This document shows, piece by piece, positions 13,022 to 62,933 of a stretch of 64,000 bases of DNA. The translations under genes were made by a program, and so were the position numbers. The stretch is from Candidatus Iainarchaeum sp. GTDB taxonomy: Archaea > B1Sed10-29 > WALL01. How positions within the stretch are numbered: position 1 is the stretch's first letter; each line of letters begins with the position of its first letter. The notes beneath the pieces are model-generated. The model did no database searches. It saw only the letters and a list, made by a program, of their open reading frames with translations, and was not told the origin of the DNA. The stretch is taken from the NCBI GenBank assembly GCA_023129115.1, contig JAGMCR010000011.1:1-64000 (forward strand). Reading direction: 5' to 3'.

Positions 13022-13630
13022 CTATTTCTTCCTCTCGCTCCAGATGTAGAGCGTGTACACAAGAAGCACAGCCACTGCAAGAACAACAATCGCGCTGCTG
13101 ACGTCCGCGAACGGCACGAGCGCCGGCGCTTCCTGGCCAGCAACCAGTATGGAGTAGTCGCCGTCGTAGTACTCAATTGTGCCGTTGACCACGCGCTTCT
13201 GGCCCTCCATGGGGCACGAGTACTCGCCGTAGAACTCTGTCTCCTCGATTGTCTCGCAGCCCGTGAACTGGTCCATGAACGCGAGGACCGTGATTTCCTC
13301 GCCGGCCGAGACTTTTTCAATGGCGCACTGGTACTCGTAGTCAATCTCGTCAAGAATGATGTCGGTGTCGAACGGTATGTACATGCTGCAGGCCTCGTAC
13401 TCGAGCCCGGTGCTCTCGGCGTGCGCAAAGCACCCTATCTCCTCGAGGGAGCCGAACTCGTTCTGCACAGAATAGCACGTCACGTCGCTCGTGTAAGTTA
13501 TTTCCGCCTCTATCTCAGTGGCCTGCGGGCACACCAAATGGTCGCTGTACGTTTCGCACCCGGTCTCTGCGTCGACCTCAACCGCAAGAGCTGCACACAG
13601 CAAAAGCAGCACAAGCAAGACTCGCTTCAT
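13022..13630 (-). CDS. Secreted acidic Cys-rich protein with C-terminal TM anchor (candidate sortase substrate)
   Basis: Signal peptide MKRVLLVLLLLCAALA; C-terminal VPFAD + hydrophobic helix + RKK. Confidence 0.8.
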   Translation of the reverse strand: MKRVLLVLLLLCAALAVEVDAETGCETYSDHLVCPQATEIEAEITYTSDVTCYSVQNEFGSLEEIGCFAHAESTGLEYEACSMYIPFDTDIILDEIDYEYQCAIEKVSAGEEITVLAFMDQFTGCETIEETEFYGEYSCPMEGQKRVVNGTIEYYDGDYSILVAGQEAPALVPFADVSSAIVVLAVAVLLVYTLYIWSERKK

Positions 13631-13701
13631 TGGATACGCTTACCCCCCACTTCCTAATAAACTTATCACCCCGGGCCCCACGGGAAGTGCAGGCGCTTGC
13701 T

Positions 13702-14136
13702 TTACCCGCGGAAAAAGTTGCCGATGCCTATGGGGAAGCCGATGAACACGTTTTCCAGCGCCCCCATGGGCCCCTGCCTGCCGTAGTTCTGGAACGGGAG
13801 CATTCCCCTCATCACGCCGGCGACGTGGGGGTTTTGCACCCCCCTCGTGGCGATGTTCATGAAGTCGGGCTGCCCCCCGATGCTCATGGGCGACGGGCCG
13901 CTCATCATGGCCTGCCAGACGTTGTCCTCCTGCTTTTCCCACATGTCGTCCGGCGCCTCGACGAGCTTGTGCCTGGGCCGCGGCCTGGCCTGCGCCACGG
14001 GCGCCGGCGCCCGACTCTTAAGGGTGTCGAGCGTCAGCTGCAGGGCAATCGCTATGAACCCAAAGATGACGAGAAGCTCTGACCGTACCACTGTCCCAAG
14101 CAGTATGAGCACGATGGCGGCCAGGATAGCTATCAT
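13702..14136 (-). CDS. Small membrane protein (2 N-terminal TM), distant member of the paralog set
   Basis: Hydrophobic N-terminus, Pro-rich linker, PDFMNI motif. Confidence 0.7.
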   Translation of the reverse strand: MIAILAAIVLILLGTVVRSELLVIFGFIAIALQLTLDTLKSRAPAPVAQARPRPRHKLVEAPDDMWEKQEDNVWQAMMSGPSPMSIGGQPDFMNIATRGVQNPHVAGVMRGMLPFQNYGRQGPMGALENVFIGFPIGIGNFFRG

Positions 14137-14142
14137 CGCGCA

Positions 14143-14511
14143 TCACTCGTAGCTGCTGCCCCCAAACACCCGGTGGCCGAGGCGGGCGGCCCGGCCGGCG
14201 CCCTTGCCCATGGCCTTTTCGACCCAGGTGTCGCCGCCCCAGTTGGGCCTGACGCGGATGTTCATGAACGAGGGTATCCTGAACGGCGGGCCGCGCGTGG
14301 TCTCTATTATTATGGGCTCGAGCGTCTCGGCGCCGTGGACCCTGACACCAGCCGTGGACACACCCTTGGCCACGATGCGCTTGGGCGCCATCAATACAGA
14401 GGAAATCACGAGCAGTATGAATATGCCTATGGCGAGGCCGGGGTATCCGGCGATGTACACCGCCACGCAGACGGCGCCCATCATCATCAGCTGCTCTGTG
14501 TCAAGGTTCAT
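14143..14511 (-). CDS. Small membrane protein, paralog family
   Basis: 2 TM + EPIII...GPPFRIPSFMNIRVRPNW...WVEKAMG. Confidence 0.75.
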   Translation of the reverse strand: MNLDTEQLMMMGAVCVAVYIAGYPGLAIGIFILLVISSVLMAPKRIVAKGVSTAGVRVHGAETLEPIIIETTRGPPFRIPSFMNIRVRPNWGGDTWVEKAMGKGAGRAARLGHRVFGGSSYE

Positions 14512-14516
14512 TCAGT

Positions 14517-14903
14517 TCAGTCCTTGCTTCTCCTGAGTGCACGCCCCATCATTACACTGCGGAACATGCGGTGCATCAGGCCAACCCCACCGCTCGCGTC
14601 CTCGAAGAAGTTGTTCGCGTTCCAGTTGGGCTGGATTTTCAGCCTGAAGTCAGGCGGGTAGAGGTAAGGCGCTTCGCCCGTGTCCTGGACAATCACCGGG
14701 GTCAGGATTTCTTCCTCTTTTTGTGGGGGCGCGGCCTGTGCCACTGGCTGCGGCGTGTGGATTGAGACCGTGGACAGGATTATGAACACCGCACCGATGC
14801 CGACGAGTATCGCGAGCCAGGTGAGGTTGAGGTACATGGCGAGGATTAGCACGAAAGCCAGGAGCCCGACCGGCCGCTGTATGTTGTCGTTCACGCTCGT
14901 CAT
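14517..14903 (-). CDS. Small membrane protein, paralog family
   Basis: 2 TM + TPVIV...APYLYPPDFRLKIQPNW...FFEDASG; GGAGGT SD before ATG 14903. Confidence 0.75.
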   Translation of the reverse strand: MTSVNDNIQRPVGLLAFVLILAMYLNLTWLAILVGIGAVFIILSTVSIHTPQPVAQAAPPQKEEEILTPVIVQDTGEAPYLYPPDFRLKIQPNWNANNFFEDASGGVGLMHRMFRSVMMGRALRRSKD

Positions 14904-14904
14904 G

Positions 14905-15258
14905 TCAGTGACCTCCAACCTTGCCGCGGCCCTTTGGCTTGAAGGCCTGGGCCAGGAGCCCTGCGCCGACGCCTGCCGCGCCGAACGCGTTCTCCCACCA
15001 CTGGTAAGTGTTCCACCGCGGGGCGACCCTTATCCGCATCCTGGAGGGGTATATGCTTGGGGGGCCCGAGTACCTGCGCTTGACTATGATGGGCCTGATT
15101 TTCGGCATGCCGCTGGCGACCGGCATGGGCGGCTCGTTCCTGACGCCCCAGACGTAGGCGGCGATGAGCAGCCCGCTGATTACCGAGAGCCACGCCATGT
15201 TATAGGCGAGCCCAACCCACACCACGGTGGCGAGCAGCAGGATGGTCAGTATGTCCAT
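14905..15258 (-). CDS. Small membrane protein, paralog family
   Basis: 2 TM + RPIIV...GPPSIYPSRMRIRVAPRW...WWENAFG. Confidence 0.75.
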   Translation of the reverse strand: MDILTILLLATVVWVGLAYNMAWLSVISGLLIAAYVWGVRNEPPMPVASGMPKIRPIIVKRRYSGPPSIYPSRMRIRVAPRWNTYQWWENAFGAAGVGAGLLAQAFKPKGRGKVGGH

Positions 15259-15546
15259 CTATCTTCCCCCAAGGAGCATTCCGGGCGAGTAGTAGCCAGC
15301 CCCGCCTTTTTCTTTGGTGAACATGAATATCCCAAGCACGACCACGGAGGCGATGAGCATTATGACTTCCTGCTGCGCCTGGAACATGTACACCAGGAGC
15401 AGGCCGATTGCCGCCACCGCCAGCAGGCCCTTGCTGCGGACTGCCACGACGAACAGGAGCATCAGGAGGGCGGCGGCCCACGTGACGCCCTGGTTAATCG
15501 TCACCATTATCATGATGAGGAAAATGACAACAGTGAGTGTGTCCAT
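15259..15546 (-). CDS. Small integral membrane protein
   Basis: 95 aa, almost entirely hydrophobic; abuts the downstream gene. Confidence 0.75.
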   Translation of the reverse strand: MDTLTVVIFLIMIMVTINQGVTWAAALLMLLFVVAVRSKGLLAVAAIGLLLVYMFQAQQEVIMLIASVVVLGIFMFTKEKGGAGYYSPGMLLGGR

Positions 15547-15556
15547 TTACTCTTCC

Positions 15557-15814
15557 TCACTCTGGGTGTGGCCCGGGGATGAACGTGTTCTCGAACGTCT
15601 CGAAGAACGCGTAGCCGAAGAACAGCGCTATGACGATTACTAGCACGCCCATGTGCTGGTAGATCGTGAGGTACACGATGATTATGGCCAGCAGTATGCC
15701 TACCCTGCGCGAGCCGGTCATGCCAATGGCCCACTGCGTCAGGTAGACGAATACGAACAGTATCGCCGCCAGCTGCAAATCAGTCCACAGGTCCCCCATA
15801 TTTCCACCTTGCAA
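15557..15814 (-). CDS. Small integral membrane protein (about 3 TM)
   Basis: Hydrophobic ORF in operon context; start may be ATG 15799. Confidence 0.75.
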   Translation of the reverse strand: MQGGNMGDLWTDLQLAAILFVFVYLTQWAIGMTGSRRVGILLAIIIVYLTIYQHMGVLVIVIALFFGYAFFETFENTFIPGPHPE

Positions 15815-15837
15815 TTATTTTAACTTTCTTGTTTATA

Positions 15838-16185
15838 TTACTGTGCCAGCTTGAACAGGGTCAGCCCCCAGAACAGCATGCCGAAGAGGCCGAACCCCAT
15901 GAATGTCCATATTATGTAAAGCCCCAGGGTGAACTGGGGCAGGATGAACACGAATATGTATATCAATACCCCTGCAATCGCGTAGCTCAGCATTCCGGGG
16001 CCCACGACGTTCCTGACCCACGAGAAAACCATTATGGCTGCAGCCACCTGGAACAATAGCATCAGTTCCGACGAGAGCGAGACCGCGACTATCGGGAGGA
16101 ACAGTATCAGCCCAAGTATTATCAGAATCGCGGGAAGCATGAGCCCCGCGGGAATGAGCCCGATGAATCCCCTGTCCCCCATCAC
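15838..16185 (-). CDS. Small integral membrane protein with possible class III signal (DRG/FIGL)
   Basis: About 4 TM; 4-nt overlap with the upstream gene. Confidence 0.75.
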   Translation of the reverse strand: MMGDRGFIGLIPAGLMLPAILIILGLILFLPIVAVSLSSELMLLFQVAAAIMVFSWVRNVVGPGMLSYAIAGVLIYIFVFILPQFTLGLYIIWTFMGFGLFGMLFWGLTLFKLAQ

Positions 16186-16556
16186 ACCTCACCTGTCTGC
16201 ATCCGCGCGAGGACTCCCCTCTGGTCCCCCGCCCTTGCCTCTGGGCCAACCCCATAGTGCCCTCCGCCGAACGCGAGGTCTGTGATTGCCCCGCCGATGC
16301 CCATTATAATCAGCAGATAAACAATCGTGAGGGGCCCGAAGACGTAGAAGTACTGGAACAATGCCAGGTACCCGATGAACAGCATCACTATGGTTGCCAC
16401 CAATCCGCCGCCGAGGTGCCCGCGCACCCACCCGATTATGAAGAGCAGCATCACGATTTTAAGGCCAAGAATAACGAGCTCGCAGTAGGGAATGAAGGCG
16501 CACACGCCGCCCATGGTGCCCATGCCGCTGCTCAACACGGACTGGAGGAAGCCCAT
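16182..16556 (-). CDS. Small integral membrane protein (about 3 TM, Gly-rich)
   Basis: WVRGHLGGG resembles WVRNVVGPG of its neighbour; TTTAAATA box upstream on the minus strand. Confidence 0.75.
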   Translation of the reverse strand: MGFLQSVLSSGMGTMGGVCAFIPYCELVILGLKIVMLLFIIGWVRGHLGGGLVATIVMLFIGYLALFQYFYVFGPLTIVYLLIIMGIGGAITDLAFGGGHYGVGPEARAGDQRGVLARMQTGEV

Positions 16557-16623: not shown

Positions 16624-16980
16624 ATGGCAAAGCCCAGGAAGAGAATCTCCAAGATTGCTGGCGGGTCCGGCGCTGTCCAGGCGCAGTCGATTCAGAGGAC
16701 CCTGACCTGGACTAACCCATTGAAGTTCCTGCAGAACATCCGCTACCAGAGCTTTTTGGGTGACGACAAGAAAAAGGCGCTGGAGGGCCCGCACCCGCAC
16801 GCGCCGTTCGGCGAAAAGGTGCGCCACCACCTGGACCGCGTGCAGAGGAAGACGGGCAAGCGCTCGCTCTCCCACGTGACCCCAAAGACGCTCAAGGACA
16901 ATGTCTCACCCCACCTGGACAAAGTAGAGGAAGAGCACGGCCGCCGCTCGCTCTGGGCCCACCTTCTCGAGAAGGACTAG
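16624..16980 (+). CDS. Basic His-rich hypothetical protein with an internal repeat
   Basis: HLDRVQRKTGKRSL / HLDKVEEEHGRRSL duplicated motif; TTATATA upstream. Confidence 0.6.
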   Translation: MAKPRKRISKIAGGSGAVQAQSIQRTLTWTNPLKFLQNIRYQSFLGDDKKKALEGPHPHAPFGEKVRHHLDRVQRKTGKRSLSHVTPKTLKDNVSPHLDKVEEEHGRRSLWAHLLEKD

Positions 16981-17372
16981 CAGTCCAGCGGCTTTTCTAT
17001 GGCATAGTTGTCAATCATCACCAAATCCACGGATTTGCCCTCGCACCCGTTTTTCGTGATTTTGACGTTTAGCTGAGCTCCGAGCGGCAAGCTGAAGCTC
17101 GCTGTGCCGTCTTCCGCCATGCTGGTGAGCCGCTGCTCGCCGTAGACGACGGTCACGCGCGCCCCGGGTGTTGTCGTGATGTCCAGCCTATACTTTACGC
17201 CGGGAAAAAGCAGGAAAGCCAGCCCAAACAGGATTATGAGCCCAATTGCCGTCAAAACAGCCCAGCTGGGGAGGCCCAGGCCCTCAATCGGGTCCGTAAG
17301 CACGTAAAGAGGTATCCCCCTGGCCTCAAGCCCGTCCACGAAGTCGTTCCATCGAGAAGCCATTGCCGGCAC
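16977..17372 (-). CDS. Mini-paralog of the giant surface proteins (conserved N-domain + TM + one PEGA-like domain)
   Basis: WNDFVDGLEARGIPLYVLTDPIEGLGLPS + TM + GARVTV...DGTASF...ITKNGC. Confidence 0.85.
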   Translation of the reverse strand: MPAMASRWNDFVDGLEARGIPLYVLTDPIEGLGLPSWAVLTAIGLIILFGLAFLLFPGVKYRLDITTTPGARVTVVYGEQRLTSMAEDGTASFSLPLGAQLNVKITKNGCEGKSVDLVMIDNYAIEKPLDC

Positions 17373-17939
17373 CTATACCTTATTGGTGTAACTAATGTAG
17401 TCAATTTCTAGGTTCGTGCTGAGGTCCATGTATTCGGCGAACCCCACAGGCATGCTGCCCTTGGCCTCAGTCGTTTCAGCAACTTTCTTGAAGGCCTTGC
17501 CCTCCTTGACATAATACTTTGTCGTGCCACTGGGGTCCCATACAATCTTGTAGGTGTGCCACGCATTTGTGTTCGCGCTGTCCCCCAAGGTAAATTTTTT
17601 GTAACCTGAAGAGCTGCCATACGTCGCGTCGCCCTTTATGTACGTGGCGGCACTGAGGTAATTGGTGAGGCTGCTAGTGCCGTAGAACACGTGGAACTTC
17701 CCGCCGCTGTAGTCGTGGAACCCAAACCACGGGTCCCACTCGTCCACAGTAGTCCACTTGGCCCGGACTTCCACCGTGCCCTGCGTGTACCACTCACTCG
17801 TCTTGAGGCCGCAGTGCACGTGGTCCCCTGTCGCGGCCTCGCACTTGGCTATGCCGTTCGCAGCGACGAACGGGTGCGCCCCCGCAGTCACCCACCTGCC
17901 GCTGTCGGAATCAAAATTGTCAGTCCACGCTATAAAGGG
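17373..17939 (-). CDS. ConA/LamG/GH16-like beta-sandwich domain in the -1 frame of giant protein 1
   Basis: WTDNFD...GTVEVRAKW...WHTYKIVW...LEIDYI; no signal peptide; the frame opens before the slippery site at 17933-17939. Confidence 0.65.
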   Translation of the reverse strand, partial: PFIAWTDNFDSDSGRWVTAGAHPFVAANGIAKCEAATGDHVHCGLKTSEWYTQGTVEVRAKWTTVDEWDPWFGFHDYSGGKFHVFYGTSSLTNYLSAATYIKGDATYGSSSGYKKFTLGDSANTNAWHTYKIVWDPSGTTKYYVKEGKAFKKVAETTEAKGSMPVGFAEYMDLSTNLEIDYISYTNKV

Positions 17940-20900
17940 GACACCACCACCGTTATCGGCGGGAGCTCGCCCTCAAACCCGCTGTTGTCTGTGTAGGTCA
18001 CCTTTATAGTGTACGTGCCTTCGGCGTCATATTCCTGGCTGTTCCAGCCGGTTGGCCCACTTGCCGTTCCAGCGCTGTTCCACGAGAACGTCGAGGTGCC
18101 AACTCCCCAGTCAATCGTTCCCGTGCCCCCTTCTGTGCCCGCTGCCACGATGCTGAACGTCAGCGTGACAGTCCCGCTCCCTATCATGCTGGTCGTGGAC
18201 GGGCTTGCCCCGATTGTCGGGCCCTTGCACGCGCTGGAAGTCGGGTCCGGCTTGCACGGGTCAGTGTCGTCCGGGTCCTCTGCAGAGCACGCGTTGCCGT
18301 TGACGCTGTAGCCATAGCCGTCGCCGTCATTGTCAATGCACTTGTCGCCGCACGTCCCGCTCACCGGCGGGTCGTTCTTTTCTTCCTCGTACGCGTTGAC
18401 CTCGATTATGGACGGCTTAAGGTCAACGTCCGGGGTCACGGACTTCTTGAACGAGTACCTGATGTACCGCATCATGAACTCATCGTCAAGCACGTCGTGC
18501 TGTGTGCCCGAAACCCTTCCAGTCTCGGTGATGTGCGTCCACTTCTCGCCGTCCGACGAGCCGTCGAGGAAGTAGCCCTCGTACAGCGGGCAGCCGTCGT
18601 CCTCCAGGAACGTGTCAATCTGCTTGATGTTCGCGACGTGTCCCATGTCCACGATTATCTCACACTTCTTGCTCCCGGCGTTGCACCAACTAGCGCCAGT
18701 CGTGTAGCTGTCGTCAATCGCCTTGTCTCCGCCACCCTCCGCTGTGACTTCAGCGTCATCGTACTCATCAGACGCGTGGTCCACCCACAGGTTCTCGACG
18801 TAGTAGTCGCACGTCAGCTTCTGCGCGCCCGACCCGCTCACCATCACGGTGAGGTAGGAATCGCTCTCAGTGGTCTCTAGCATGAACTCTTCGCTGCTGG
18901 AGCGCCCTATCTCGCCCGTGGAAATGGCCGTGTCCGGAGTATTGGCTGCGTTCTCGGGGATGTTGTCGCACCCGCCGTACGTCTCCGGCCGATTGGCCGT
19001 CTTCCACAGTGACACCACGCCAGTGCCGGCTGCCCCTCCAGTGTTCTCGACAGTCGCGTAGACGTCATAGACCAGCCCGTCGCTCTGCAGGGCCTTGCTG
19101 ATAACAAGGTTGGCTCCAGCGGACTGTGTTGCCGTGAGTGTTGTCCACACAGGGTTGCTCTCGATGCCGTCGTCGTCCCTCACCACGAGAGTCACGTTGT
19201 ACACTCCCGGCCCAGGCACTGCGTACTGGTACTTGGCGTCGCCCGTGGTGGACGGCTCCTCGTCGCCGATTGGGTTGAGGGAGATGTAGTCAAGCGTCTT
19301 GGCCCCACCGGTTGTGGAGACCTCCAGCTTGTACCTGCCCTTGGCCAGGCTCACCTGGCTGGTGTAGGCAGTGTCCTCTATCTTGAGGTCGAACGTGCCG
19401 CTCCCGCCGATTGTTATGGCGTAGTCGGTCGGCTCGCCGCTGTTTGGGTTCGCCATGTTGTCGGGTATGTCAAGCCAGTACTGGGCATACGCCTGCCCAA
19501 TGCTCTCCAGCTGGAACTTGTTGCTCGAGTCCTTGTCATACGTCACGGTAAACCCGCTCTCGGCGATGTACTCCTCTGCCTCGACAACCGCGCCGCGGCT
19601 TATTGTCCACATGTAGTCCACGATTTCGCCGTTTGAGTCATAGCTGTCCGAGCCATCGAGCGTCACAATCGGCGTTGCGCTCAGGTCCGCGTATATCGGG
19701 CCCTTCACCACGGCAGTCGGCTGGCCGGCCGCAGTAAGCGCCCAGACACTCTCCGTGTTCCAGCCCGGCCTGTTGGTGCCGATGGTGCCCTCTGTCCAGT
19801 ACTCCACAAGGCTAATCGCGAGCTGCTGCCTGTAGCCGCTGAGCAGCTCGGAGTCGTCGCGGTAGTCCGGGTTGTTGTAGCACAAGCCAAAGCGCACGGC
19901 CTTGTCCTCGAACCCGCTGCCCTCGCTGATGTCGAGGTAGCCAACCACTCCGGTGCACTGGCTGGTCAGCCAGTCAAAGTCAGTGTTGTCCTCTATCTGG
20001 CCAATGTAATAGTCCTGGTAGTCAAAGCTGTAAGAGCTCTTGTCATAGTCTGTCTCGAACACGTTGTAGTGCGAGCCGTAGCTGAACAAGTGCTTCTGCT
20101 CGATGTTGAGGTGCCCGCGGTCAATCGCCTTCTGGAGGTCGCTGACGAACGGCCCAATGCCGAACCCGCCAGTGCTCCTGAAGCCCGCGTAGTCGACGCT
20201 CCCCGGCTCCGACACGCGGAGCGCGCGGTCAAGGTTCATGTAGCCAATTGGCTCGGCGTAGGCACCGGTCGTTTCGATGGGCGCGCACTTCTTGTTATTG
20301 CACTCGCACCCGCTGTCGCAGTCGCTGTCCGTCGTGCACTTGGGGTATCGGCAGGTGCCAGATATGGGCGGCCAGCCCGGAACGCATTCCTGGCATTTTG
20401 GGCACGTCCCGGGTATGTGGGTGAAGCAGCTGTCGCCTTCAGGCTCCGGGCCACGCTTTACTGCTTCTCTCCAGCACCACTCCGCTTCGGTGGCGTCGGC
20501 GCCTGTCTCGATTTCAATGTCTCCGCCGCCCAGCGTCCTGAAGTCAACAGTGACCAAGCCGCACAACATGTCCTCGTTCACGACCCACAGCTCCTTCGCG
20601 TCGGTCGGCGCTGCGCTGCCGGTCTTGAACGCGTTGCTGATGTCGCCGTAGTAATACTCGTCCATCACCTTCTGGAACGTCGACACTTTTACGTCCTCGG
20701 CGCCGAGCGCGTAAGTCGCCTGCGGCGTCCCCGCCTCTGCGTCAGCCAGGACTGCCATGACGAACTGCTCTGCGTCGCACACGCTCGCCCGGGTCCTGCC
20801 GCCGGCAAGCGCCGTGATTGCACACCCACCCGTTGTTATCTCGGTGGGGTCAGCGGTCTCGCGCACAACGACCTGGCTTCCAACGAGCCCCGCCACGTCG

Positions 20901-50627: not shown

Positions 50628-50656
50628 AAGTTATCTACTTTGAGTATATATAAGTT

Positions 50657-52738: not shown

Positions 52739-53245
52739 TCACTTCTCCGTTAAGAGCCGGCCCAATTTAAGCTTTTCCCGCAGGACGTCCCGCAAATACC
52801 ACGCCGCGTAAAACCCGACAATCGCCACCACCAGTGTCGCGCGGAACAAAACAGAATGCACAATCTCCACTGCCCCCGCGCCCCACGCCTGCCACGCAAG
52901 CATCGTCGCCGCAATCCTCAAGGCGTTAATCATCATCACAAAAGCAAACGCCCCCGCAATCCCGAACACCCGCTCCCTCTTCGCGCGGTCCTCTGTCGAA
53001 AAAATCGCTCCCGCCAGCACAGCAACCTCAATGTCGCCCACGCACAGCGGAATCACGCGCACCGAAAGCGAGTTGAAGAACACGAGCGCGCCCTGCGAGT
53101 AAGCCACCCCGAACACCGAGAGCAGTGCCGCCGACATCCACGCGGTCAGCCCCTGCAGCGCCGGCATCACGCCAGAAAGCGCGAGATAGGCAAGGCTGCC
53201 GAATACCACAATCCCAACAGCAAATCTCAGGCCTTTCCCCGGCAT
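52739..53245 (-). CDS. Exosortase/archaeosortase family protein
   Basis: Multi-TM protein with Cys (VIPLCVG), Arg (INALRI) and His (IVHSV) catalytic triad in the expected order. Confidence 0.85.
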   Translation of the reverse strand: MPGKGLRFAVGIVVFGSLAYLALSGVMPALQGLTAWMSAALLSVFGVAYSQGALVFFNSLSVRVIPLCVGDIEVAVLAGAIFSTEDRAKRERVFGIAGAFAFVMMINALRIAATMLAWQAWGAGAVEIVHSVLFRATLVVAIVGFYAAWYLRDVLREKLKLGRLLTEK

Positions 53246-53280
53246 TACTCTTATATACTCCCCCCACGTTTTTAAGGAAG
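53246..53280. promoter_or_regulatory. Compact divergent promoter between the sortase and the pilus ATPase
   Basis: 35-bp gap; TTATATA at 53251-53257 (about 24 nt before ATG 53281) and TTAAAAA on the minus strand about 24 nt before 53245. Confidence 0.5.
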
Positions 53281-55587
53281 ATGGCTGAGGAGAAGAGCCC
53301 TTACACTGTTAAGACTGAAGGCACAATCAAGTACCTGATTATTGACTGCCGCGGCTCGACCTACGGCCCAAGCATTGCGGACTACCCCCAGCGCATGTCC
53401 GAAGTAATCGGGTATTTGGGCAAGACAGACGCCGACCGCATCGTCCTCGCCGAAGTATACGAGCGCGTCTACGACGAGGACCAGACGCGCATGCTGAAGC
53501 AGCTCGCCGAGCTCCTGCAGAAGTTCCGCGTCAAGGGGGTGTGGTCCCCGCAGTACCTCGGCGGCGACGCGTGCTCCGCGTTCCTCCCCACGCGCCACGA
53601 CCTCGTCGTAAACATCGCGTCGGACCTCCTCCGCACCGACCCAATCCGCGCGTACATGAAGTGCATCCAGGCAATCCAGCGCGAGAAAGCACAGCTCCCC
53701 CAGCTGCCGCCCGAGCAGAAAGAATGCACGCAGACATTCCTCACCACGCTCGAGTACATCAAGGCAAACTTCGAGGCCACGGACCTAATCCAGCAGCTCA
53801 AGGGCTACGTCCGCAAGCTCAAGAAGCTGCCGCCAGGCCGCGGCTTCTACCACACCGTGTTCGAGGCCCAATTAAAGCCGTCGTTCATCGGCTCCCGGCT
53901 CATGTTCAAGCTCCCCGCGGAAATTGAGCTCCTCGACCAATACGAGGTCAAGGGCACGCGCGTGACAATCTACAAGCACCCCGAAAAAATCGAGTACCTA
54001 TACCACATCAACCCGCCCGAGTACTCCCTCACCCCCGAGCACTACTTCCTCTTGAGCAAGACAAAGGAAATAGTGAGCGAGTACCACCCCGAGGGCCTTG
54101 AGTTCACAGAGCTCGCGACGAGCAAGGACTACTTCATGCGCATCTACGAGACGACCATCGCAGACATCGCGCGGCAAAACGGAATCGAAGTCTCGCATAC
54201 AGACATCCAGCAGCTCGCGCGCATCGTCGCGCGCTACACCATAGGCTTCGGCATGATGGGACTGCTTTTGTCGGACGAGCGGCTCACCGACGTATACATC
54301 GACGCGCCGCTCGGGCAGAAGCCCGTGTACATTGTCCACAGCGACTACGGCCCGTGCCAGACCAACGTGTTCTTCTCGGAAGAAGAGGCCAACTCCGTGG
54401 TCTCGCGCTTCCGCTCCCTGTCGGGCAGGCCGTTCGACGAGGCGCACTCTGTCCTGGACTTCGACCTGCACGAGTACCACACGCGCACGTGCACAATCGG
54501 CCAGCCGCTCTCGCCGGACGGCGTCGCGTTCGCCTTGCGCTTGCACAAGGGAACGCCGTGGACCCTGCCGCAGTTCATCGACGTGAAGATGGTGACGAAC
54601 GAGGTCGCGGGACTGCTGTCATTCCTGATTGACGCGCAGGCGTCCTCGCTCATCGTCGGGAGCAGAGGCTCGGGAAAGACTTCATTATTAATGTCGCTCA
54701 TGCTCGAAATCCTCCCCTCGCTGAGGGTCATAACTATAGAGGACACGCTTGAGCTGCCGGTCGAGTACATGCGCAAGACCGGGTACAACATCTGCCGGCT
54801 CAAGACAAGGAGCGCAATCTCTGTCGGCGCGATTGCGTCCGAGGTGTCGCCCGAGGACGCGCTCCGCACCGCGCTCAGGCTTGGCGACTCTGTACTCATC
54901 ATGGGCGAGGTCCGCTCCAAGGAAGCGCTCGTGCTGTACGAGGCCATGCGCGTCGGCGCAGTGGGCAACGTTGTGATGGGCACAATCCACGCCGAGAACG
55001 CCTACTCTGTGTGGGACCGCGTTGTGAACGACCTCGGCGTGCCGAACACCTCGTTCAAGGCGACGGACATGTGCATTGTCTCCGCGCCAATCAGGTTCAA
55101 GGGAGCGCTGCAGAAGACGCGCCGCCTCGTCGAAATCACCGAGGTCGGCAAGACATGGTACGAGGACCCGGGCCGCGAGGGCGGCTTGATTGACCTGATG
55201 ACGTACGACGCGACGAACGACGTGCAGACCGTGCACAAGGACAACATTTTCGAGAACTCGCAGTTCTTCAAGAAAATCCAGCGGAGGCGCGGCATGGACA
55301 TCGACATGATTTGGGAGGACATCCAGCACCGCGCGTCCTCCAAGCAGTTCCTCGTGGACATGAAAAACGAGTACAAGATTCCCACGCTGCTCGAGGCGAG
55401 GTACACCGTCAGGATGAACGACAAGTACCTCCTGATGCAGGAGCTGTCGCGCCAGGAGCTTGGCAGTGTGGACTACCCCAAGGTGCTCGAGGACTGGAAG
55501 CAGTGGGTCAAGGACGGCTTCGTGAAAGAGCTGGTCTCGAGGAGGGATGCGCTTGCCAAGGTCAAGCCGGCGGCAAAAAAAGAGTGA
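53281..55587 (+). CDS. Type II/IV secretion system (TadA/ArlI/VirB11-like) pilus assembly ATPase with long N-terminal extension
   Basis: Walker A GSRGSGKTS, Asp box TIEDTLEL, Walker B LIMGEVR, His box GTIHAE. Confidence 0.93.
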   Translation: MAEEKSPYTVKTEGTIKYLIIDCRGSTYGPSIADYPQRMSEVIGYLGKTDADRIVLAEVYERVYDEDQTRMLKQLAELLQKFRVKGVWSPQYLGGDACSAFLPTRHDLVVNIASDLLRTDPIRAYMKCIQAIQREKAQLPQLPPEQKECTQTFLTTLEYIKANFEATDLIQQLKGYVRKLKKLPPGRGFYHTVFEAQLKPSFIGSRLMFKLPAEIELLDQYEVKGTRVTIYKHPEKIEYLYHINPPEYSLTPEHYFLLSKTKEIVSEYHPEGLEFTELATSKDYFMRIYETTIADIARQNGIEVSHTDIQQLARIVARYTIGFGMMGLLLSDERLTDVYIDAPLGQKPVYIVHSDYGPCQTNVFFSEEEANSVVSRFRSLSGRPFDEAHSVLDFDLHEYHTRTCTIGQPLSPDGVAFALRLHKGTPWTLPQFIDVKMVTNEVAGLLSFLIDAQASSLIVGSRGSGKTSLLMSLMLEILPSLRVITIEDTLELPVEYMRKTGYNICRLKTRSAISVGAIASEVSPEDALRTALRLGDSVLIMGEVRSKEALVLYEAMRVGAVGNVVMGTIHAENAYSVWDRVVNDLGVPNTSFKATDMCIVSAPIRFKGALQKTRRLVEITEVGKTWYEDPGREGGLIDLMTYDATNDVQTVHKDNIFENSQFFKKIQRRRGMDIDMIWEDIQHRASSKQFLVDMKNEYKIPTLLEARYTVRMNDKYLLMQELSRQELGSVDYPKVLEDWKQWVKDGFVKELVSRRDALAKVKPAAKKE

Positions 55588-55606
55588 CTCCACTCCCAAA
55601 ACGGAC

Positions 55607-57748
55607 GTGGCAGAGCTCCTCTTCGGCGCGGGCAGGAAGAAGCCCAAGAAGAAAAAAGTGGAGAAGCAGCACTGGTACATCGGCTTCTGCAAGAGAGCGG
55701 CCAAGTCCTTCGGCAAGGGCGCGAAGAAGGAATTGACCGAGCAGTACAAGGTCGCGCTCGCCTTCCTCGGGTGGAAGCTGAAGCCCGAAGAAGTCAACGC
55801 CGCGCCGTTGGTGCCGATGTACTACGGCATGGCGCTCGCGTTCGTGTGGGCGCTGCTCAACCTGGTGTTCTCCGGCTTCATCAACGTTGGCCTTAAGCCG
55901 ATTGTTATCCTTGGCACGGAAACAGGCCGCGGCGCAATCGAGGGCGGCTTCCTCCTGATTGGCCACCCGCTTTCGATGGGCATCCCGCTGTTCTGGTACC
56001 TCGCGCCGTTCGCCATCGCGTTCTACGCGATGTACTATATACAGTCCACGCCGATGCGCGAGGCAGAGAAGCTGCGCATCCGCTCGCTCACATTCATCCC
56101 CGAAATCGTGAACTACTTTGTCATGGCGATGAAGGTCACGCCCAACCTCGAGCGCGCGATTGCGTTCGTCGCGGAGCACGGCCAGGGCCGCGTCGCCGAG
56201 GACTTCAAGTCGCTGCAGTACGACATCCACGTCGGCAAGTACCGGACCGTCGAGGAAGCTTTGGACAACCTCGCGTGGAAGTGGGGCGACTACTCCCCGG
56301 AGTTCAAGCACGCACTGATGCTCATCCGCTCCTCAGTAATGGAGGCGGACGAGGGCAAGCGGAACGACCTGCTGGACAAGGCAATCACGGACGTGCTCGA
56401 GGGCATCCAGGAAAAAATGGACTTTTATTCCCGCGCCATGCACCAGCCGAGCATCTACCTCTACTACTTCGGCGTGCTGCTCCCGCTCCTCCTAATCATC
56501 ATCATCCCTGTCGGCGCGATGATGGGCGGCGGCGGCATCGCGTGGCTCGCGGGCGCCATACCCCTCGCAATCATCTACAACGTGATGATTCCGGCCGCGT
56601 CGTTCCTCCTCGCGAAGAGCATTCTCGGGAAGCGGCCGCCGACGCGGGACGTCCCAAAAGTCCCCGTGGGCATGCCCGGCCTCCCCAAGCCGGGGTGGTT
56701 CAGCATCGGCGGGAGCCAGCTGCCCGTGACGTTTGTCGCCGCCGCGATTCTCGTTGGAATTGTCGCTGCGTCGTTCCTCGCGACGCCCATACTCGACCCC
56801 ATGCCGCGCGTGTTCGAGCCAATGTACGACTCGTACTGCCTCATCGGCTCGCCGACCGGCCTGTGCATCCCGTACCTCCAGTACGCCGGCATCCTTTTGG
56901 GCATCGTGGCCGCGTTCGGGTTCCACATGTGGTCGAACCACAAGGACCGCTGGGCCATGCAGCGCGAGATAATCCAGATGGAGAACGGGTTCCAGGAGAC
57001 ATTGTACATACTCGCGTCCCGCCTCGGCGAGGGAAGGCCGATGGAGGACGCGATGAAGCACGCGGCAGAGTTCATCCCCAACTCCCCCGCGACCAAGCGC
57101 ATTTTCCTGCCGACGCTGCACAACATGCGCATGCTCGGCATGACAATCAAGATGGCTTTGTTCGACGAGGCGTACGGCTCCTTGCGGTTCATCCCGAGCG
57201 GGTTCATCAAGGGCACGATGCGCATCGTGGTCGACTCGCTGGGCCTGGGCGTCCAGACCGCGGCCAAGTCACTGATTTCCCTTTCCCTCCAGCTCCGCGC
57301 CATGCAGAAAGTCGAAAAAGCGCTCAAGGCAATGCTTTCGGACATCACGAGCATGATGAGCACGATGAGCATGTTCATCGCCCCGGTCGTGCTTGGAATC
57401 ACCATCGCCTTGCAGCAAATCATCATGGGCGCGATGAAGTCCATGGGCGAGGCGGGCTTAGGGCAGCAAAGCACTGCGAACGTCCCCGGCATGAGCGCGT
57501 TCAAGATGCCCGAGCTGGGGGGCGGCGAGGCGCTCGAGGCCGCCGCGACGCAGGCAGAGCTATTGTTCATAATCAGCTTTTACATGGTCGAGATAGTCGT
57601 AATCCTCATGTACTTTGCCTCGCACGTTAACGAGGGCGACAACGAGCTCGCGTTCAAGATGGCGATTGCGCAGGCGCTGCCGATTGCGATGGCGATTTTC
57701 TTTGGCGTGACGTTCATGGCAATGAAGATGACGGCGATTGGGATCTGA
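55607..57748 (+). CDS. Type IV pilus membrane platform protein (TadB/C, ArlJ-like; two T2SSF-like domains)
   Basis: TPNLERAI and GEGRPMEDAM domain motifs with multiple TM; follows the ATPase; GTG 55607 is the probable start (ORF open from 55547). Confidence 0.88.
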   Translation: MAELLFGAGRKKPKKKKVEKQHWYIGFCKRAAKSFGKGAKKELTEQYKVALAFLGWKLKPEEVNAAPLVPMYYGMALAFVWALLNLVFSGFINVGLKPIVILGTETGRGAIEGGFLLIGHPLSMGIPLFWYLAPFAIAFYAMYYIQSTPMREAEKLRIRSLTFIPEIVNYFVMAMKVTPNLERAIAFVAEHGQGRVAEDFKSLQYDIHVGKYRTVEEALDNLAWKWGDYSPEFKHALMLIRSSVMEADEGKRNDLLDKAITDVLEGIQEKMDFYSRAMHQPSIYLYYFGVLLPLLLIIIIPVGAMMGGGGIAWLAGAIPLAIIYNVMIPAASFLLAKSILGKRPPTRDVPKVPVGMPGLPKPGWFSIGGSQLPVTFVAAAILVGIVAASFLATPILDPMPRVFEPMYDSYCLIGSPTGLCIPYLQYAGILLGIVAAFGFHMWSNHKDRWAMQREIIQMENGFQETLYILASRLGEGRPMEDAMKHAAEFIPNSPATKRIFLPTLHNMRMLGMTIKMALFDEAYGSLRFIPSGFIKGTMRIVVDSLGLGVQTAAKSLISLSLQLRAMQKVEKALKAMLSDITSMMSTMSMFIAPVVLGITIALQQIIMGAMKSMGEAGLGQQSTANVPGMSAFKMPELGGGEALEAAATQAELLFIISFYMVEIVVILMYFASHVNEGDNELAFKMAIAQALPIAMAIFFGVTFMAMKMTAIGI

Positions 57749-57755
57749 TTGGCTA

Positions 57756-58226
57756 ATGAAGCTACCGAAAATAGGCTCGCGCGGGCAGCAGTGGGAAGTG
57801 ATGAAGCTTTTGCAGGGCGGAGTCATCGCTGTGCTCATGCTCATCGTGGTCTATGGCGTGGTGAGCTCCGTCCGGGGCCAGACGCCGCGCTCTGACGTTT
57901 ATTCCGTGTCATGCGAAATCCTGGGCTCTGCCTACGCGGCGAGGGGCACGGGCGAGCGGTTCGTGCGCGAGGCCCTGCTGGTGGAGCAGGAAATCTTTTC
58001 CGAGGCCCTCGTCCAGTGCTCGGGCCTGCCGTCCGGGACATCGGTGAAGATGATGTGCAAGCACGCCTTTTGTTTGCACGACGGAGAGCCCCTGAACCGG
58101 GGGAGCGACTGCCGGCTGCACTCGCCGTGCTCGTCAATGGAGTTCGTGGCGGGCGATACCATCAACGTCTGTGCCGTCTGCGACGAGGGCGAGTGCCGCA
58201 TCTGGTTCGGCGAGAGCGAGTGCTAA
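57756..58226 (+). CDS. Pilin-like protein, class III signal peptide
   Basis: SRG/QQWE + hydrophobic helix; Cys-rich head. Confidence 0.8.
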   Translation: MKLPKIGSRGQQWEVMKLLQGGVIAVLMLIVVYGVVSSVRGQTPRSDVYSVSCEILGSAYAARGTGERFVREALLVEQEIFSEALVQCSGLPSGTSVKMMCKHAFCLHDGEPLNRGSDCRLHSPCSSMEFVAGDTINVCAVCDEGECRIWFGESEC

Positions 58227-58272
58227 CCTTTATATACCTCGCCTCTGTTATCCAAAAACGAGGTAATGCTTT

Positions 58273-58725
58273 ATGCAACGTGGACAAGCATTTGATGCAT
58301 TCAAGCTTCTGATAGCCGCTGTCGTGGCAGGCGCCATTTTGGTCATCCTGCTCTCGATGATTAGCGGGTTCGTGCCTGTGGGCCAGGACCCACTGACGGT
58401 CATGGGGCAGGAGCTGAACAAGGTCAAGAAGGGCGGGGTTTGCTCGACTTCTTCCCAGGTAGTCCAGTTCAGCGATGGCCAGGAGTTCAGCGCGGACGCA
58501 GTGGCCCGTGAGGCAGGAATCAACTTGGGCCAGGTGCAGTTCTGCTGCAGCGGCGTTGAAGACGAGGGGGGCAAGTGTGATGGCTATATGTTCGACGACG
58601 AGGACGCGTTCGACTGTGATGAAGCGTCATTACTGGTAACCGCACAAATGTCCGGCAAAGTCCGTTCTTGTTGCCCAATCAGCAGTGATGCGCCCTGCGT
58701 CATTGGCTTCAAGGCAAGCAGGTAG
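58273..58725 (+). CDS. Pilin-like protein, class III signal peptide (candidate major pilin)
   Basis: MQRG/QAFDAFKLLIAAVVAGAIL; own TTTATATA box at 58229-58236. Confidence 0.82.
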   Translation: MQRGQAFDAFKLLIAAVVAGAILVILLSMISGFVPVGQDPLTVMGQELNKVKKGGVCSTSSQVVQFSDGQEFSADAVAREAGINLGQVQFCCSGVEDEGGKCDGYMFDDEDAFDCDEASLLVTAQMSGKVRSCCPISSDAPCVIGFKASR

Positions 58726-58732
58726 ATTAGCA

Positions 58733-58897
58733 ATGCTTTGGATGCTGAAGGCACTGTTCAGGGATAATCGGGGCGACGTGAACTGGACCCCGATTTATCT
58801 CCTTATTTTGGCAGCCATCGCAGCAATACTCTTGATTAGCGTAATCAAGCCCATGTTCCAGAGCGCGGTCTCCAGCGCGTCAGCTGGCTTGCCCTAA
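58733..58897 (+). CDS. Minimal Flp-like pilin (about 40-aa mature)
   Basis: DNRG/DVNW + hydrophobic helix, no head domain. Confidence 0.7.
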   Translation: MLWMLKALFRDNRGDVNWTPIYLLILAAIAAILLISVIKPMFQSAVSSASAGLP

Positions 58898-59059: not shown

Positions 59060-59308
59060 ATAATCTGCGGTGGCCAGCGCGTCTGCTACGATGCCGCGAG
59101 TATTTTGCTTGTGTATGGGATGATAATGGAGCAAGGCAAACAATTTGGTAAATTATCGATTCGACAAGGTAGTCACGGATAGTACAATTTCAATCTGGAA
59201 AACGGTGGTTGATGTTCGAATCCAGTCTATGCCCCTACTTGATGCCTCGGCAAGTTATATCAGTCATCTTTAAATACCTGTTTTTGTGTGTGTATAAGGG
59301 GGGATAAA

Positions 59309-60159: not shown

Positions 60160-60244
60160 TTAATTTGTCGCAGGGCCTGGGCTGTTGGGTAAAGCTTGTC
60201 TGCTTAAGTAAAGCATTTAAACACCCCCTTCTTTGTTTTTGGTT

Positions 60245-60805
60245 ATGGCCAGTCGCGGACAGGAAGAGGCGCCCTTCTCGCTTTTGCTTGCTGTGGCGAT
60301 GATGGCGCTCGTCATCCCCATAGCCGCCTACATGTTCCAGGGGTTCCAGGCGTGGGAGTGCCAGCAGCGCATCGAGAACAACATGGAGACCTTCGCGCGC
60401 GAGCTCGAGCTCGCCGCGACGCTCGGCGGCGGCAAGCGCGTCGTGGACATAGACCTTTCCCTCTACGCGTGCCCGGGCGTGCACGTCGACAACTTCACAC
60501 TGAAGAATCCTGGCCAGGACAGGTGCCAGGAAGTGTGCCACGACCCCAATTGCAGGATATTAGAGGCGGTGTACGAGGAGTTCGACGACGAGACAGGGGA
60601 ATCGCTGGGCTTGTCCGTGGCCTCGCAGCCGGTGTGCGTGCGGATTCCGGTGAACGTTGACTTTTCGACCCTGGACTGCGACCCAAGCGAGGGCTATGAG
60701 CCGCTTGCGGGCGAGGGCCTCGCGCCGGGCTATTACCGCATCGCACTCATCAAGGAGGGCTACCGCGTCCGCGTGTGCAGGGTCCCGGTTGAGAGGTTTG
60801 GCTGA
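60245..60805 (+). CDS. Pilin-like protein, class III signal peptide
   Basis: MASRG/QEEAPFSLLLAVAMMAL; Cys-rich. Confidence 0.8.
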   Translation: MASRGQEEAPFSLLLAVAMMALVIPIAAYMFQGFQAWECQQRIENNMETFARELELAATLGGGKRVVDIDLSLYACPGVHVDNFTLKNPGQDRCQEVCHDPNCRILEAVYEEFDDETGESLGLSVASQPVCVRIPVNVDFSTLDCDPSEGYEPLAGEGLAPGYYRIALIKEGYRVRVCRVPVERFG

Positions 60806-61431
60806 TGAAGAAAGGCCTCGGGATGTGGATAATGAGCAAGCTCGTGCTCATGATTTTCCTATTCGCCTTGGTCCTTGTCCTCACCTTGTTCATGCGGGTA
60901 TACAGCGACAAGATAATTTCTGACACTGCGCAGAGCTACACTCTCCTGTGGAGCGAGGTCGCGAACGGCGCATTGCTTTACCGGTCGAGCAGCGACAGCG
61001 TGTTCCTCCCCGACATAATGCGGGTGCGCGAGGCGAACCGCGAGTACACTGTGATGGTGCAGAAGGTCGGGAGCGAGCGCGCCGTGTTCTTCCTGGCGTG
61101 GTACAAGCACGAGACCGCGGAAGACATGCGTGGGGAGGGGTTCGCGGCGGCGACGGCAATCAACATGCCGTCGGCGGTGGCTGGCGACGGCAAAATCCTG
61201 TTGTTCGAGGGCCTGGAGGGCGAGGTCGGGTTCGAGGAGCCGCTGGACCCCAGCGTGCTGATGGTTCGGCCGTCCGAAAGGGTGGGCAGGGACACGACGC
61301 TTTTGTTCACGCGGAAGGACGAGTACTTCTGCGTCGGCACGATAAAGGAGGGAGTGTCTGTCGAGCACTCGGTAAGCCTGTTCGGCGACTGCTGCCAGAA
61401 GGACTGGGATGATGTTGATGGCTGCTACTAG
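60805..61431 (+). CDS. Pilin-like protein, class III signal peptide
   Basis: MKKG/LGMW + hydrophobic helix; TGATG coupling. Confidence 0.75.
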   Translation: MKKGLGMWIMSKLVLMIFLFALVLVLTLFMRVYSDKIISDTAQSYTLLWSEVANGALLYRSSSDSVFLPDIMRVREANREYTVMVQKVGSERAVFFLAWYKHETAEDMRGEGFAAATAINMPSAVAGDGKILLFEGLEGEVGFEEPLDPSVLMVRPSERVGRDTTLLFTRKDEYFCVGTIKEGVSVEHSVSLFGDCCQKDWDDVDGCY

Positions 61432-61924
61432 GGGCTACATCGGCCCGCTGGGCGACGACTTCCCCGCGATTTTCCCGATAGCCATGGGCCTTCTCCTTTT
61501 CTTTTCCGCCATCACGCTGACGTACGACTATTACAACACCAAGCACGACGCCGCGCTTTTGCTTGAGGCCAACACCGCACTGGCAAAAGCCGCGCGCGCC
61601 CAGCTCGTGTTCACGCAGGACTACTGGGACGAGGAGGGCGGCGTGTGCGACTTGATTGACAAGACCAAGGCGAACTACGGCGTGCGCGCCAAGGCCGAGC
61701 TACTGCAGTTCGAGCGGCTGGGCCCAACGAAATACGACTTCAACAAAATAAGGAAAATCGATGGCAAAACCCTGGGCGACAACCCGTGCGTTGACTACGA
61801 GGACGACGACCGCAACCCATTGCCGTACGAGGGCGACTTCTTCATTTCCCTGACGTACCCAATCCTGCTGAAGTCTGGGAACGGCCAGGAGATAGCGACG
61901 CTGGTGGTGACGACGTGGATGTAA
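61418..61924 (+). CDS. Pilin-like protein, class III signal peptide
   Basis: TRG/YIGPLGDDFPAIFPIAMGLLLFF. Confidence 0.72.
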   Translation: MAATRGYIGPLGDDFPAIFPIAMGLLLFFSAITLTYDYYNTKHDAALLLEANTALAKAARAQLVFTQDYWDEEGGVCDLIDKTKANYGVRAKAELLQFERLGPTKYDFNKIRKIDGKTLGDNPCVDYEDDDRNPLPYEGDFFISLTYPILLKSGNGQEIATLVVTTWM

Positions 61925-62484
61925 AGCGCGGCCAGGCAGTGGTCATCGACGGCCTGTTCTTCCTCATGATTTGCGGGTTTGCGGCGGCGACACTGTTGTG
62001 GGCGGGCTCTGTCTACGGCGACAAGAGCTTCGAGGCCTACCGCTACATTTACATGACGGACTACACAGGCGGCGCGATGGCTGTGCTGAGCAACCTCGAC
62101 TACGAGTACACGGTTTCAATCGGCGGCAGCTCCGCGGCCGTGAAGGCGGCGTGGCTCGACGAGCTCGGGTCGTACATGCTTGGCGAGTTCAACGAGACCG
62201 ACGCGCGGTACAAGGTGATGCGTGGGCACTGGGATACGCTGTGCAGCCAGGCGCCTGCGCCGCTATTGCTCACTGTCTACTCTGAGTACGAGGGCACTGC
62301 CCGCGGCACGCAGGAGGAGCCGCTCTACTTCGCGTGCGGCGAGGGAGACCGCAGCCTATTGAAGGCCCTCGAGGACGAGGACGGCGAGCTCAACATCTTC
62401 AAGTACCCGTACTATTCGTCGGACATTATGTCCAAGTCCTGCTCCACCCTGCGGTGCATAATGGACATAAAGATTTATTACTGA
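61915..62484 (+). CDS. Pilin-like protein, class III signal peptide
   Basis: MDVKRG/QAVVIDGLFFLMI; GGTGA SD. Confidence 0.8.
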   Translation: MDVKRGQAVVIDGLFFLMICGFAAATLLWAGSVYGDKSFEAYRYIYMTDYTGGAMAVLSNLDYEYTVSIGGSSAAVKAAWLDELGSYMLGEFNETDARYKVMRGHWDTLCSQAPAPLLLTVYSEYEGTARGTQEEPLYFACGEGDRSLLKALEDEDGELNIFKYPYYSSDIMSKSCSTLRCIMDIKIYY

Positions 62485-62504
62485 AGTGATTATGGTGTAG
62501 CGGG

Positions 62505-62933
62505 ATGATGATTGAGCTCTATTTCACGTTTTTCCAGATGGTGCTGGAGTACGGCGACTACCCTGCCATGCTGATAATGGCTTTCCTGACGTCGCTCGTG
62601 GTGTTCGCGGCGGCAGTCGTGGCAAAGCTCGCGCTCGGCAAGGTAAAGCCGTGGTACTTCTCGGCTTTCCTCGTGACAGAAGGGTATTTCCTGCTGGCGC
62701 AGGTGTTCCTCGCCTTCTTCTATTCCACAGAAATAGGCATCCTCACGTTTTTCGAGCCAGCGACTTATACTTATCTCGTCTTCGTCCTCCCCATGGCAAT
62801 GGCGTACCGCAAGGCCATGGAGAAGTGGCCAGTCCTGCCGTGGCACTTCATGGTCTACGGCCTTTCCCTGCTGGCGTCGCTGGTGTTCTGGTACTTCGCG
62901 GTGTTTGTGTTCGGCATCTTCGCTCTGGCATAG
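62505..62933 (+). CDS. Integral membrane protein (about 4 TM)
   Basis: Hydrophobic ORF at the end of the pilin operon. Confidence 0.75.
   Translation: MMIELYFTFFQMVLEYGDYPAMLIMAFLTSLVVFAAAVVAKLALGKVKPWYFSAFLVTEGYFLLAQVFLAFFYSTEIGILTFFEPATYTYLVFVLPMAMAYRKAMEKWPVLPWHFMVYGLSLLASLVFWYFAVFVFGIFALA

Follow-up and report, generated by a model that had tools for sequence, protein, structure and literature searches.

The window analysed here, the first 64 kb of the 107.9-kb contig JAGMCR010000011.1, comes from a 1.25-Mb, 88.6% complete genome of Candidatus Iainarchaeum sp., which belongs to a small phylum-level group of DPANN archaea (24 genomes at at least 80% completeness). From window position 6792 to contig position 68395 runs a block of ~60 kb, 4.9% of the genome, with a bounded parts list of about 30 genes whose order is kept across three archaeal lineages. 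The block encodes a predicted type IV pilus (an assembly ATPase, a platform and the class III signal proteins p1-p7), an archaeosortase, four giant anchored surface proteins, a 1532-amino-acid (aa) secreted protein, eight small membrane proteins (s2-s9), two coiled-coil proteins (CCPa and CCPb) and c489, a protein of HerA/VirB4/TrwB fold. That these make up one co-inherited cell-contact machine is well supported, because the order is conserved in the three lineages and components match the same 5 of 71 genomes in a sample of the Micrarchaeota phylum. As to its role, we lean by a small measure towards one contact apparatus of small-genome DPANN archaea, most likely for finding and holding a partner (host) cell.

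Extent, gene order and distribution

The original prediction had placed such a system at 13022..62933. Its components proved to be linked and co-distributed in three lineages, and its open reading frames (ORFs) exist as claimed: the giants, a mini-paralog, a 693-aa class III protein, the archaeosortase, the ATPase, the platform, seven class III proteins and eight small membrane genes, one of them at 15838-16182. Its boundaries truncated the system at both ends, beyond which lie the two coiled-coil proteins, the HerA/VirB4-fold protein and the 1532-aa secreted protein, and its statement that no housekeeping genes intervene has to be given up, as non-system genes do: a SocA/Panacea gene with its presumed RelE-like partner, a 118-aa orphan and a GH16-like 172-aa ORF.

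Among 30 relatives, a strong platform ortholog was found in 26, the 1532-aa family likewise in 26, and a giant in 24 by single query and in one more (G005) by profile. The platform and a giant share a contig in 15 of the 25 relatives having both; for nine of the remaining 10, contig ends fall within the locus, and one (G004) is ambiguous. Nine loci read gene by gene carry the same block with minor rearrangements. The giant family is present in 23 of the 24 genomes of the phylum itself, and in the 71-genome sample of the Micrarchaeota phylum (that of G044) the giants, c489 and a long platform match fall in the same 5 genomes. The order is partly kept in the Micrarchaeota G091, G042 and G101, with the pilus-sortase-giant core contiguous in G101. 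Each of the 8 positive genomes has the 1532-aa family, which was found in none of the 12 negative genomes tested.

A survey of 301 archaea at at least 85% completeness (20 from the phylum, 281 others) found c489 in 19 and 17 genomes, respectively, the latter 17 all of at most 1.3 Mb. Of these 17, the 15 with a strong c489 match all have giants and the platform, and the two weak ones have no giant. G126 consists of one 1.24-Mb contig, on which the whole order is unbroken over 67 kb (635.6-702.5 kb), running from a 1609-aa ortholog through p7-p2, the platform, the ATPase, the sortase, four giants and the small membrane genes to CCPb, c489 and CCPa; G149 is arranged in the same way. Gene order is conserved, then, in the organism's own lineage, in Iainarchaeota-labelled genomes and in one Micrarchaeota subgroup. 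A metagenome scan returned one short contig.

Pilus arm, archaeosortase and predicted sortase substrates

The features of the pilus arm and of the sorting system are:

50657..52738, minus strand: class III signal protein, 693 aa ([KR]G-F motif in 10 of 10 rows)
52739..53245, minus strand: archaeosortase, 168 aa (TIGR04178, 33.3 bits against a cut-off of 23)
53246..53280, no strand: divergent gap with two opposed TATA-like motifs, a putative promoter (sequence reading)
53281..55587, plus strand: type IV filament assembly ATPase, 768 aa, DPANN long-N-terminus subfamily (PF00437, E 3.7e-19)
55547..57748, plus strand: multi-transmembrane platform, 733 aa (position, topology, strong orthologs in 26 of 30 relatives)
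57738..58897, plus strand: class III proteins p1, p2 and p3 (sequence, alignments)
60233..62484, plus strand: class III proteins p4-p7, the minor-pilin block (motifs conserved; order kept in three lineages)
62505..62933, plus strand: multi-transmembrane protein, 142 aa (conserved position)
63797..64000, plus strand, ending at contig 68395: 1532-aa protein with signal peptide, hydrophobic Gly-rich helices and a Pro-rich/transmembrane/basic tail (sequence past the window end)
13022..13630, minus strand: s1, 202-aa secreted protein with a C-terminal membrane anchor (sequence, C-terminal anchor scan; homologs in relatives)

The two arms diverge from what had been called a 35-bp divergent promoter. 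The gap between the start codons of sortase and ATPase is exactly 35 bp, and promoter function is suggested by the back-to-back TATA-like motifs, ~27 bp from each start codon; the related loci L001 and L003 have the same gap length and motifs.

The ATPase is of the VirB11 type that marks the archaeal type IV filament superfamily. A quick version of the tree, with rows >900 or <380 aa left out, groups it with Micrarchaeota and also, within a DPANN clade of 24 rows, with Aenigmarchaeota-type loci; four further ATPases of the same genome fall elsewhere. Its nearest titled records are from Iainarchaeum, Micrarchaeota and Aenigmatarchaeota. Some orthologous ATPases (L008 9989-15355; L078 3109-7017; L006 1-2559) have large insertions, probably inteins, and reach 1788 aa. 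The platform, which has no Pfam or NCBIfam match and weakly matches a second platform gene of the same genome (E 5e-5), probably represents two fused TadC halves. A [KR][GA] cleavage motif and a hydrophobic stretch are conserved across relatives in eight class III families. With ~45 aa and no globular domain, p3 is a candidate major pilin, while the 693-aa protein, which adjoins a giant in the relatives examined and has 257-755 aa there, is a candidate large minor pilin or tip adhesin. The absence of a prepilin peptidase from the window was borne out; two A24 peptidases, both PF01478 matches over cut-off, lie elsewhere in the genome (C6:23028 and C13:73396).

A second, paralogous ATPase-platform-pilin cluster occurs in G013, G007 and G025 (L037 7605-13817; L038 6785-11724; L039 9120-14128); in G013 a secreted protein of 1676 aa, which has hydrophobic internal helices, precedes it. 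In the window, a SocA/Panacea antitoxin gene and a 119-aa gene (59288-60159, plus strand, GC 0.42) are inserted between p3 and p4; the close relatives read have none at the same place, and the 119-aa partner, which has no family match, we take to be RelE-like. Between the pilin block and the 1532-aa gene lies a PIN-domain gene with a convergent 93-aa putative antitoxin (62976-63623).

Archaeosortase/CTERM sorting of the ArtB/VPXXXP type relies on a Cys-Arg-His enzyme and on substrates that end in a Pro-rich motif, a transmembrane helix and a basic tail. The window resembles such systems in its enzyme, with Cys, Arg and His conserved in 10 of 10 rows, and in the nearby protein with a tripartite tail; it differs in that the enzyme is under every subtype cut-off and the tail is LPxxPE-like, matching no NCBIfam model. 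Given this tail on the linked 1532-aa protein and the conserved sortase residues, the 1532-aa protein is the best predicted substrate, and s1 is a candidate for a second one. In the 1532-aa family, whose lengths are 1.3-1.7 kaa (thousand amino acids), the N-terminal signal, a variable charged helical region and the tail are present in all nine aligned orthologs and internal hydrophobic segments in eight. With the AlphaFold2 (AF2) model of residues 26-1205 (pLDDT 58), neither PDB nor BFVD yielded a Foldseek match at E <= 0.001, and the VIA matches were generic helical hairpins only (Z <= 9.9). We regard the 1532-aa protein as a candidate membrane-contact protein; that it might be a MACPF-type protein or fusogen is speculative, a conjecture which the low-confidence fold neither backs nor counters.

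Giant proteins and the left-hand module

The giants and the genes beside them are:

16977..17372, minus strand: mini-paralog, 131 aa, anchor plus one Ig domain (BLAST to giants, E 3e-16)
17373..17891, minus strand: GH16/ConA-like ORF, 172 aa (PF00722, E 2e-5; three-frame reading)
17930..26353, minus strand: giant 1, 2807 aa, with N-anchor, CarboxypepD_reg-type Ig stalk, CDAEQ domain and PKD plus F5/8C tip (Pfam, alignment)
26445..35033, minus strand: giant 2, 2862 aa, same plan as giant 1, with PKD plus Cys-rich tip (Pfam, BLAST, alignment)
35045..42445, minus strand: giant 3, 2466 aa, built likewise, a long stretch of it (residues ~2306-2362) hydrophobic (sequence)
42522..50627, minus strand: giant 4, 2701 aa, built likewise, with a segment rich in Gly close to the tip (sequence, Pfam)

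The four giants are mutually paralogous and share 24-37% identity in their first 900-1900 aa (best E 1e-147). Twenty aligned giant N-termini share an amphipathic cytoplasmic segment, a single membrane helix and Ig domains that contain Cys; CarboxypepD_reg-type Ig repeats lie in the first 550 aa, and Pfam finds PKD close to the tip in giants 1 and 2, with F5/8C in giant 1. Similarity extends to nearly all family members in the first 600 aa but to few or none of them at the tips, and the Cys-rich CDAEQ domain is found in all four window giants and in 26 of 89 database giants. In a set of 89 database giants >1500 aa and 19 full-length giants from loci, a hydrophobic stretch within the last 50 aa was found in one protein (listed twice), with no basic tail. 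By this anatomy the giants are type II membrane proteins with an uncleaved N-anchor and not sortase substrates; a tie between giants and sortase is not supported, the 1532-aa protein being the likelier substrate. No enzyme or toxin tip was detected at E <= 1e-5 by Pfam in 19 homologous giants, which returned stalk domains, PKD and one CAP domain.

G013, G015, G019 and G020 have a single copy at the locus, G009 has two, G002 three and G008 four; across the family, copy number ranges from 1 to 4 or more, with lengths of 1.6-3.6 kaa. That it varies from one upward argues against an obligatory heteromeric stalk or conduit, as the giants had been proposed to form, and no fold or complex test backed that proposal. 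Short forms like the mini-paralog are also found in relatives and in Micrarchaeota. The GH16/ConA-like frame runs back over the end of giant 1 (17373-17960), so the ORF is possibly a lectin-like tip domain of giant 1 detached by frameshift or assembly error. Other, unrelated giant ORFs (1094, ~3600, 2608 and ~4000 aa) occur in this genome, G000 (C3 79896-96838; C14 13581-21407; C15 1-12010).

Could these proteins simply build an envelope, with giants and sortase substrate as an S-layer-like coat and stalks and the pilus genes merely nearby? Ig-rich, acidic proteins bearing N-glycosylation sites near a sortase are typical of archaeal coats, and a family in 23 of 24 phylum genomes is nearly universal. 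The giants themselves, however, do not look like ordinary S-layer proteins: no S-layer family is above cut-off on them (weak SlaB, 17-18 bits against a cut-off of 700), their topology is type II with an uncleaved N-anchor, their tips, copy number and length vary, and a separate PF05124 S_layer_C gene lies at C13:146044. We consider an envelope-building cluster very improbable.

The left-hand module (CCPa, c489 and CCPb) and the small membrane genes are:

6792..7223, plus strand: CCPa, ~143-aa cytoplasmic coiled-coil protein (kept beside c489 in three lineages)
7225..8694, minus strand: c489, HerA/VirB4/TrwB fold with degenerate Walker A and B (AF2, Foldseek, VIA)
8757..9176, plus strand: CCPb, small helical N-domain plus coiled coil (conserved divergent to c489)
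13702..15258, minus strand: s2-s5, membrane-hairpin proteins (paralogy, sequence)
15259..16556, minus strand: s6, s7, s9 (15838-16182) and s8, small multi-transmembrane proteins (sequence)

The AF2 model of c489 (pLDDT 82.9) matches HerA in Foldseek (4d2i, E 6.7e-13) and in VIA (Z 22.1, with 19.4 for VirB4); HerA and DndH are its best structural matches, level with or above VirB4. The GxxxxGK[ST] motif is absent from all 16 aligned rows and Walker B is degenerate, and c489 is, on its modelled fold, a probable pseudo-ATPase. Such a protein invites the alternative of a contact-dependent transfer machine for DNA or protein, related to Ced/type IV secretion systems or to type II secretion, in which the pilus would act as a piston, the small membrane proteins as a channel and c489 as a coupling hub. 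Its fold and the small multi-transmembrane genes adjoining it fit this, as does the full-length TrwK/VirB4 structure 7o42, the only HerA/VirB4-family row that reaches residue 28 (Z 12.4, root-mean-square deviation 15.8, 359 aligned). With the Walker motifs lost, however, c489 cannot be the motor; its best structural matches lie with HerA and DndH, and the locus showed neither a relaxase nor a nuclease gene. A transfer machine appears distinctly unlikely.

Both coiled-coil proteins have counterparts in Aenigmarchaeota-type loci, next to ATPases orthologous to that of the window: the CCPa profile matches the coiled-coil gene beside the ATPase in the DPANN loci L009, L010 and L031 (hhalign 94%, E 1.2e-7), and the CCPb hidden Markov model matches 215-aa coiled-coil genes of L010 (9e-7) and L009 (4e-6). 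A complex prediction for the ATPase and CCPa scored 0.00 and is not used as evidence. Among the small membrane proteins, s3-s5 are paralogous with a conserved PIIV...PxxYP motif, s7, s8 and s9 are weakly paralogous, and the order s6-s9 is the same in the Iainarchaeota-labelled G126, G149 and G301. Profiles of s3-s5 and s7-s9 gave chance-level matches only against PDB sequences, those of s7-s9 including none that would point to a VirB2/CedA1-like pilin; homology of s7-s9 to the small membrane proteins of L009 and L010 was ruled out (hhalign 0.1%).

A TnpB/Cas12f-like gene, a helix-turn-helix nucleotidyltransferase and a 450-aa orphan (9490-13021) split the coiled-coil module from the remainder, where the matching interval in G002 has one 214-aa gene only. 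A 118-aa basic orphan ORF without family match (16624-16980, plus strand) lies on the opposite strand within the minus arm. The family B DNA polymerase at 3146-6676 (minus strand) is ~410 aa longer than its G002 ortholog, with an insert that looks intein-like by eye.

Relation to known systems and proposed function

By sequence, the core of ATPase, platform and coiled coils resembles published DPANN pilus loci (Hamm 2024; Makarova 2019), as far as their accessible text goes. Locus 2 of Hamm 2024 (PMC11291902) is alike in its CpaF-type ATPase, TadC platform and two coiled-coil proteins, and the same linkage is found here, at 44-46 kb within one block; it is unlike in being reported, in the text available, only for cluster 2 DPANN and Undinarchaeota, and that text has no N-anchored giants, archaeosortase, sortase substrate or HerA/VirB4-fold pseudo-ATPase. 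The DPANN 'dark matter' pilin island (PMC6393860) shares an ATPase, TadC, 'specific surface proteins' and divergent pilins, and the portion of its text at hand has no giants, sortase, or coiled-coil or pseudo-ATPase module. Within the classification of archaeal pili, consulted in part (PMC4858521), T4F system 1, the Epd pilus (also PMC13705601), is alike, in the passages seen, in having numerous pilins, a tiny one with no globular domain, and accessory genes that resemble adhesins; there it has two platform genes and a peptidase in the cluster, where the window has one 733-aa platform with peptidases elsewhere and adds the giants, the sortase and the left-hand module. According to the accessible text of a 2026 survey (PMC13705601), Nanobdellati rarely have an ordered pilus locus; the locus here is ordered over 60 kb.

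The original prediction spoke of an undescribed system. DPANN loci with ATPase, TadC and coiled coils and 'dark pilin' islands are published, so this stands for the whole architecture alone, which was not found in the literature covered, chiefly the freely available main text of papers. Novelty may be touched by Hamm Dataset 13 and the tables of PMC13705601, and also by Makarova Fig. 2A, where part of the locus may be depicted.

The likeness to Epd raises the alternative of a general adhesion cluster, an Epd-like pilus with giant adhesins for particles, biofilm or the organism's own kind, and no special host role. PKD, F5/8C and Ig are common adhesion modules, p3 is without a globular domain like the Epd pilin described in PMC13705601, as partly consulted, and the carriers include a lineage described as possibly free-living in the accessible part of PMC10936187. 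Such a cluster would not account for the conserved, catalytically dead protein of HerA/VirB4 fold, the two coiled-coil proteins, the eight small membrane proteins or the hydrophobic 1532-aa protein, and c489 was detected only in genomes of at most 1.3 Mb. We regard this as unlikely, though worth keeping in view.

It can instead be proposed that the block is a contact apparatus for a partner cell. Its parts, topology, linkage and co-occurrence are read directly, and beyond them each step is inferred or speculative. By analogy with type IV filaments, the ATPase and platform would polymerise a pilus from p3 with the minor pilins p1, p2, p4-p7 and the 693-aa protein, the class III proteins being presumably processed by an A24 peptidase encoded elsewhere in the genome. 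The sortase, if it works as other archaeosortases do, would cleave and anchor the 1532-aa protein and perhaps s1. The anatomy of the giants suggests an N-terminal anchor, a conserved Ig stalk and fast-changing PKD and F5/8C tips that would bind partner surfaces, and the small membrane proteins, the two coiled-coil proteins and the catalytically dead c489 may form a base gathering the parts at one site. The 1532-aa protein might, speculatively, insert into the partner membrane.

A bolder variant, which we find unlikely, is a host-penetration organelle, in which pilus and giants dock, a portal and a base in the cytoplasm are built of small membrane proteins, coiled coils and a dead VirB4-like ring, and the sortase-anchored 1532-aa protein opens a feeding channel by placing its hydrophobic helices in the host membrane, the ATPase-platform-coiled-coil core being shared with the cone organelle of Nanobdellota. 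That organelle (PMC11420986; bioRxiv 10.64898/2026.06.04.730037), with its layered cytoplasmic cone, portal and 7-8 nm filament, would need such parts; the texts, as far as seen, assign no genes, the organisms are of a different DPANN branch, and the link is conjecture. Giants and c489 were not detected in five or six non-carrier Nanobdellota-branch genomes tested. More widely, the accessible text of PMC11420986, PMC11329633, bioRxiv 10.1101/2023.10.27.564410 and 10.64898/2026.06.04.730037 describes attachment structures or candidate surface proteins without the locus of the window.

For host attachment as the role of the contact apparatus, the scales stand even. In its favour, host-attached DPANN conserve related loci of ATPase, TadC and coiled coils, which are expressed in part (PMC11291902, as partly seen). 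Other observations weigh against the contact apparatus as read here, some of them bearing on its unity. The left-hand module is separate from the pilus arm in G372, G229 and G101; PolB and methionine aminopeptidase share the conserved order, so that some linkage may be inertia; and the three carrier lineages are kin, which makes their co-distribution not independent. Absences depend on cut-offs, and divergence past these may explain some of them. Others bear on the host: no locus was detected in 66 of the 71 Micrarchaeota-phylum genomes, though cultured Micrarchaeota attach to hosts; the proposed attachment role is read from genes, in a lineage without a known host; and, in the sources as far as available, Iainarchaeota, which carry the locus, are described as possibly free-living (PMC10936187) and the connecting tube of ARM-1 is host-made (PMC11329633).

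For DPANN archaea, host attachment and feeding are seen in tomograms as cones, portals and filaments, for which the texts available to us name no genes. The locus gives a bounded, conserved gene set as candidate grip machinery, and qualifies the 2026 statement, as read in part, that Nanobdellati pilus genes are scattered (PMC13705601). It also adds two unannotated families: one is the conserved protein of HerA/VirB4 fold that has lost its Walker motifs, the other the sortase-tailed protein of 1.3-1.7 kaa, for which no fold match was found.

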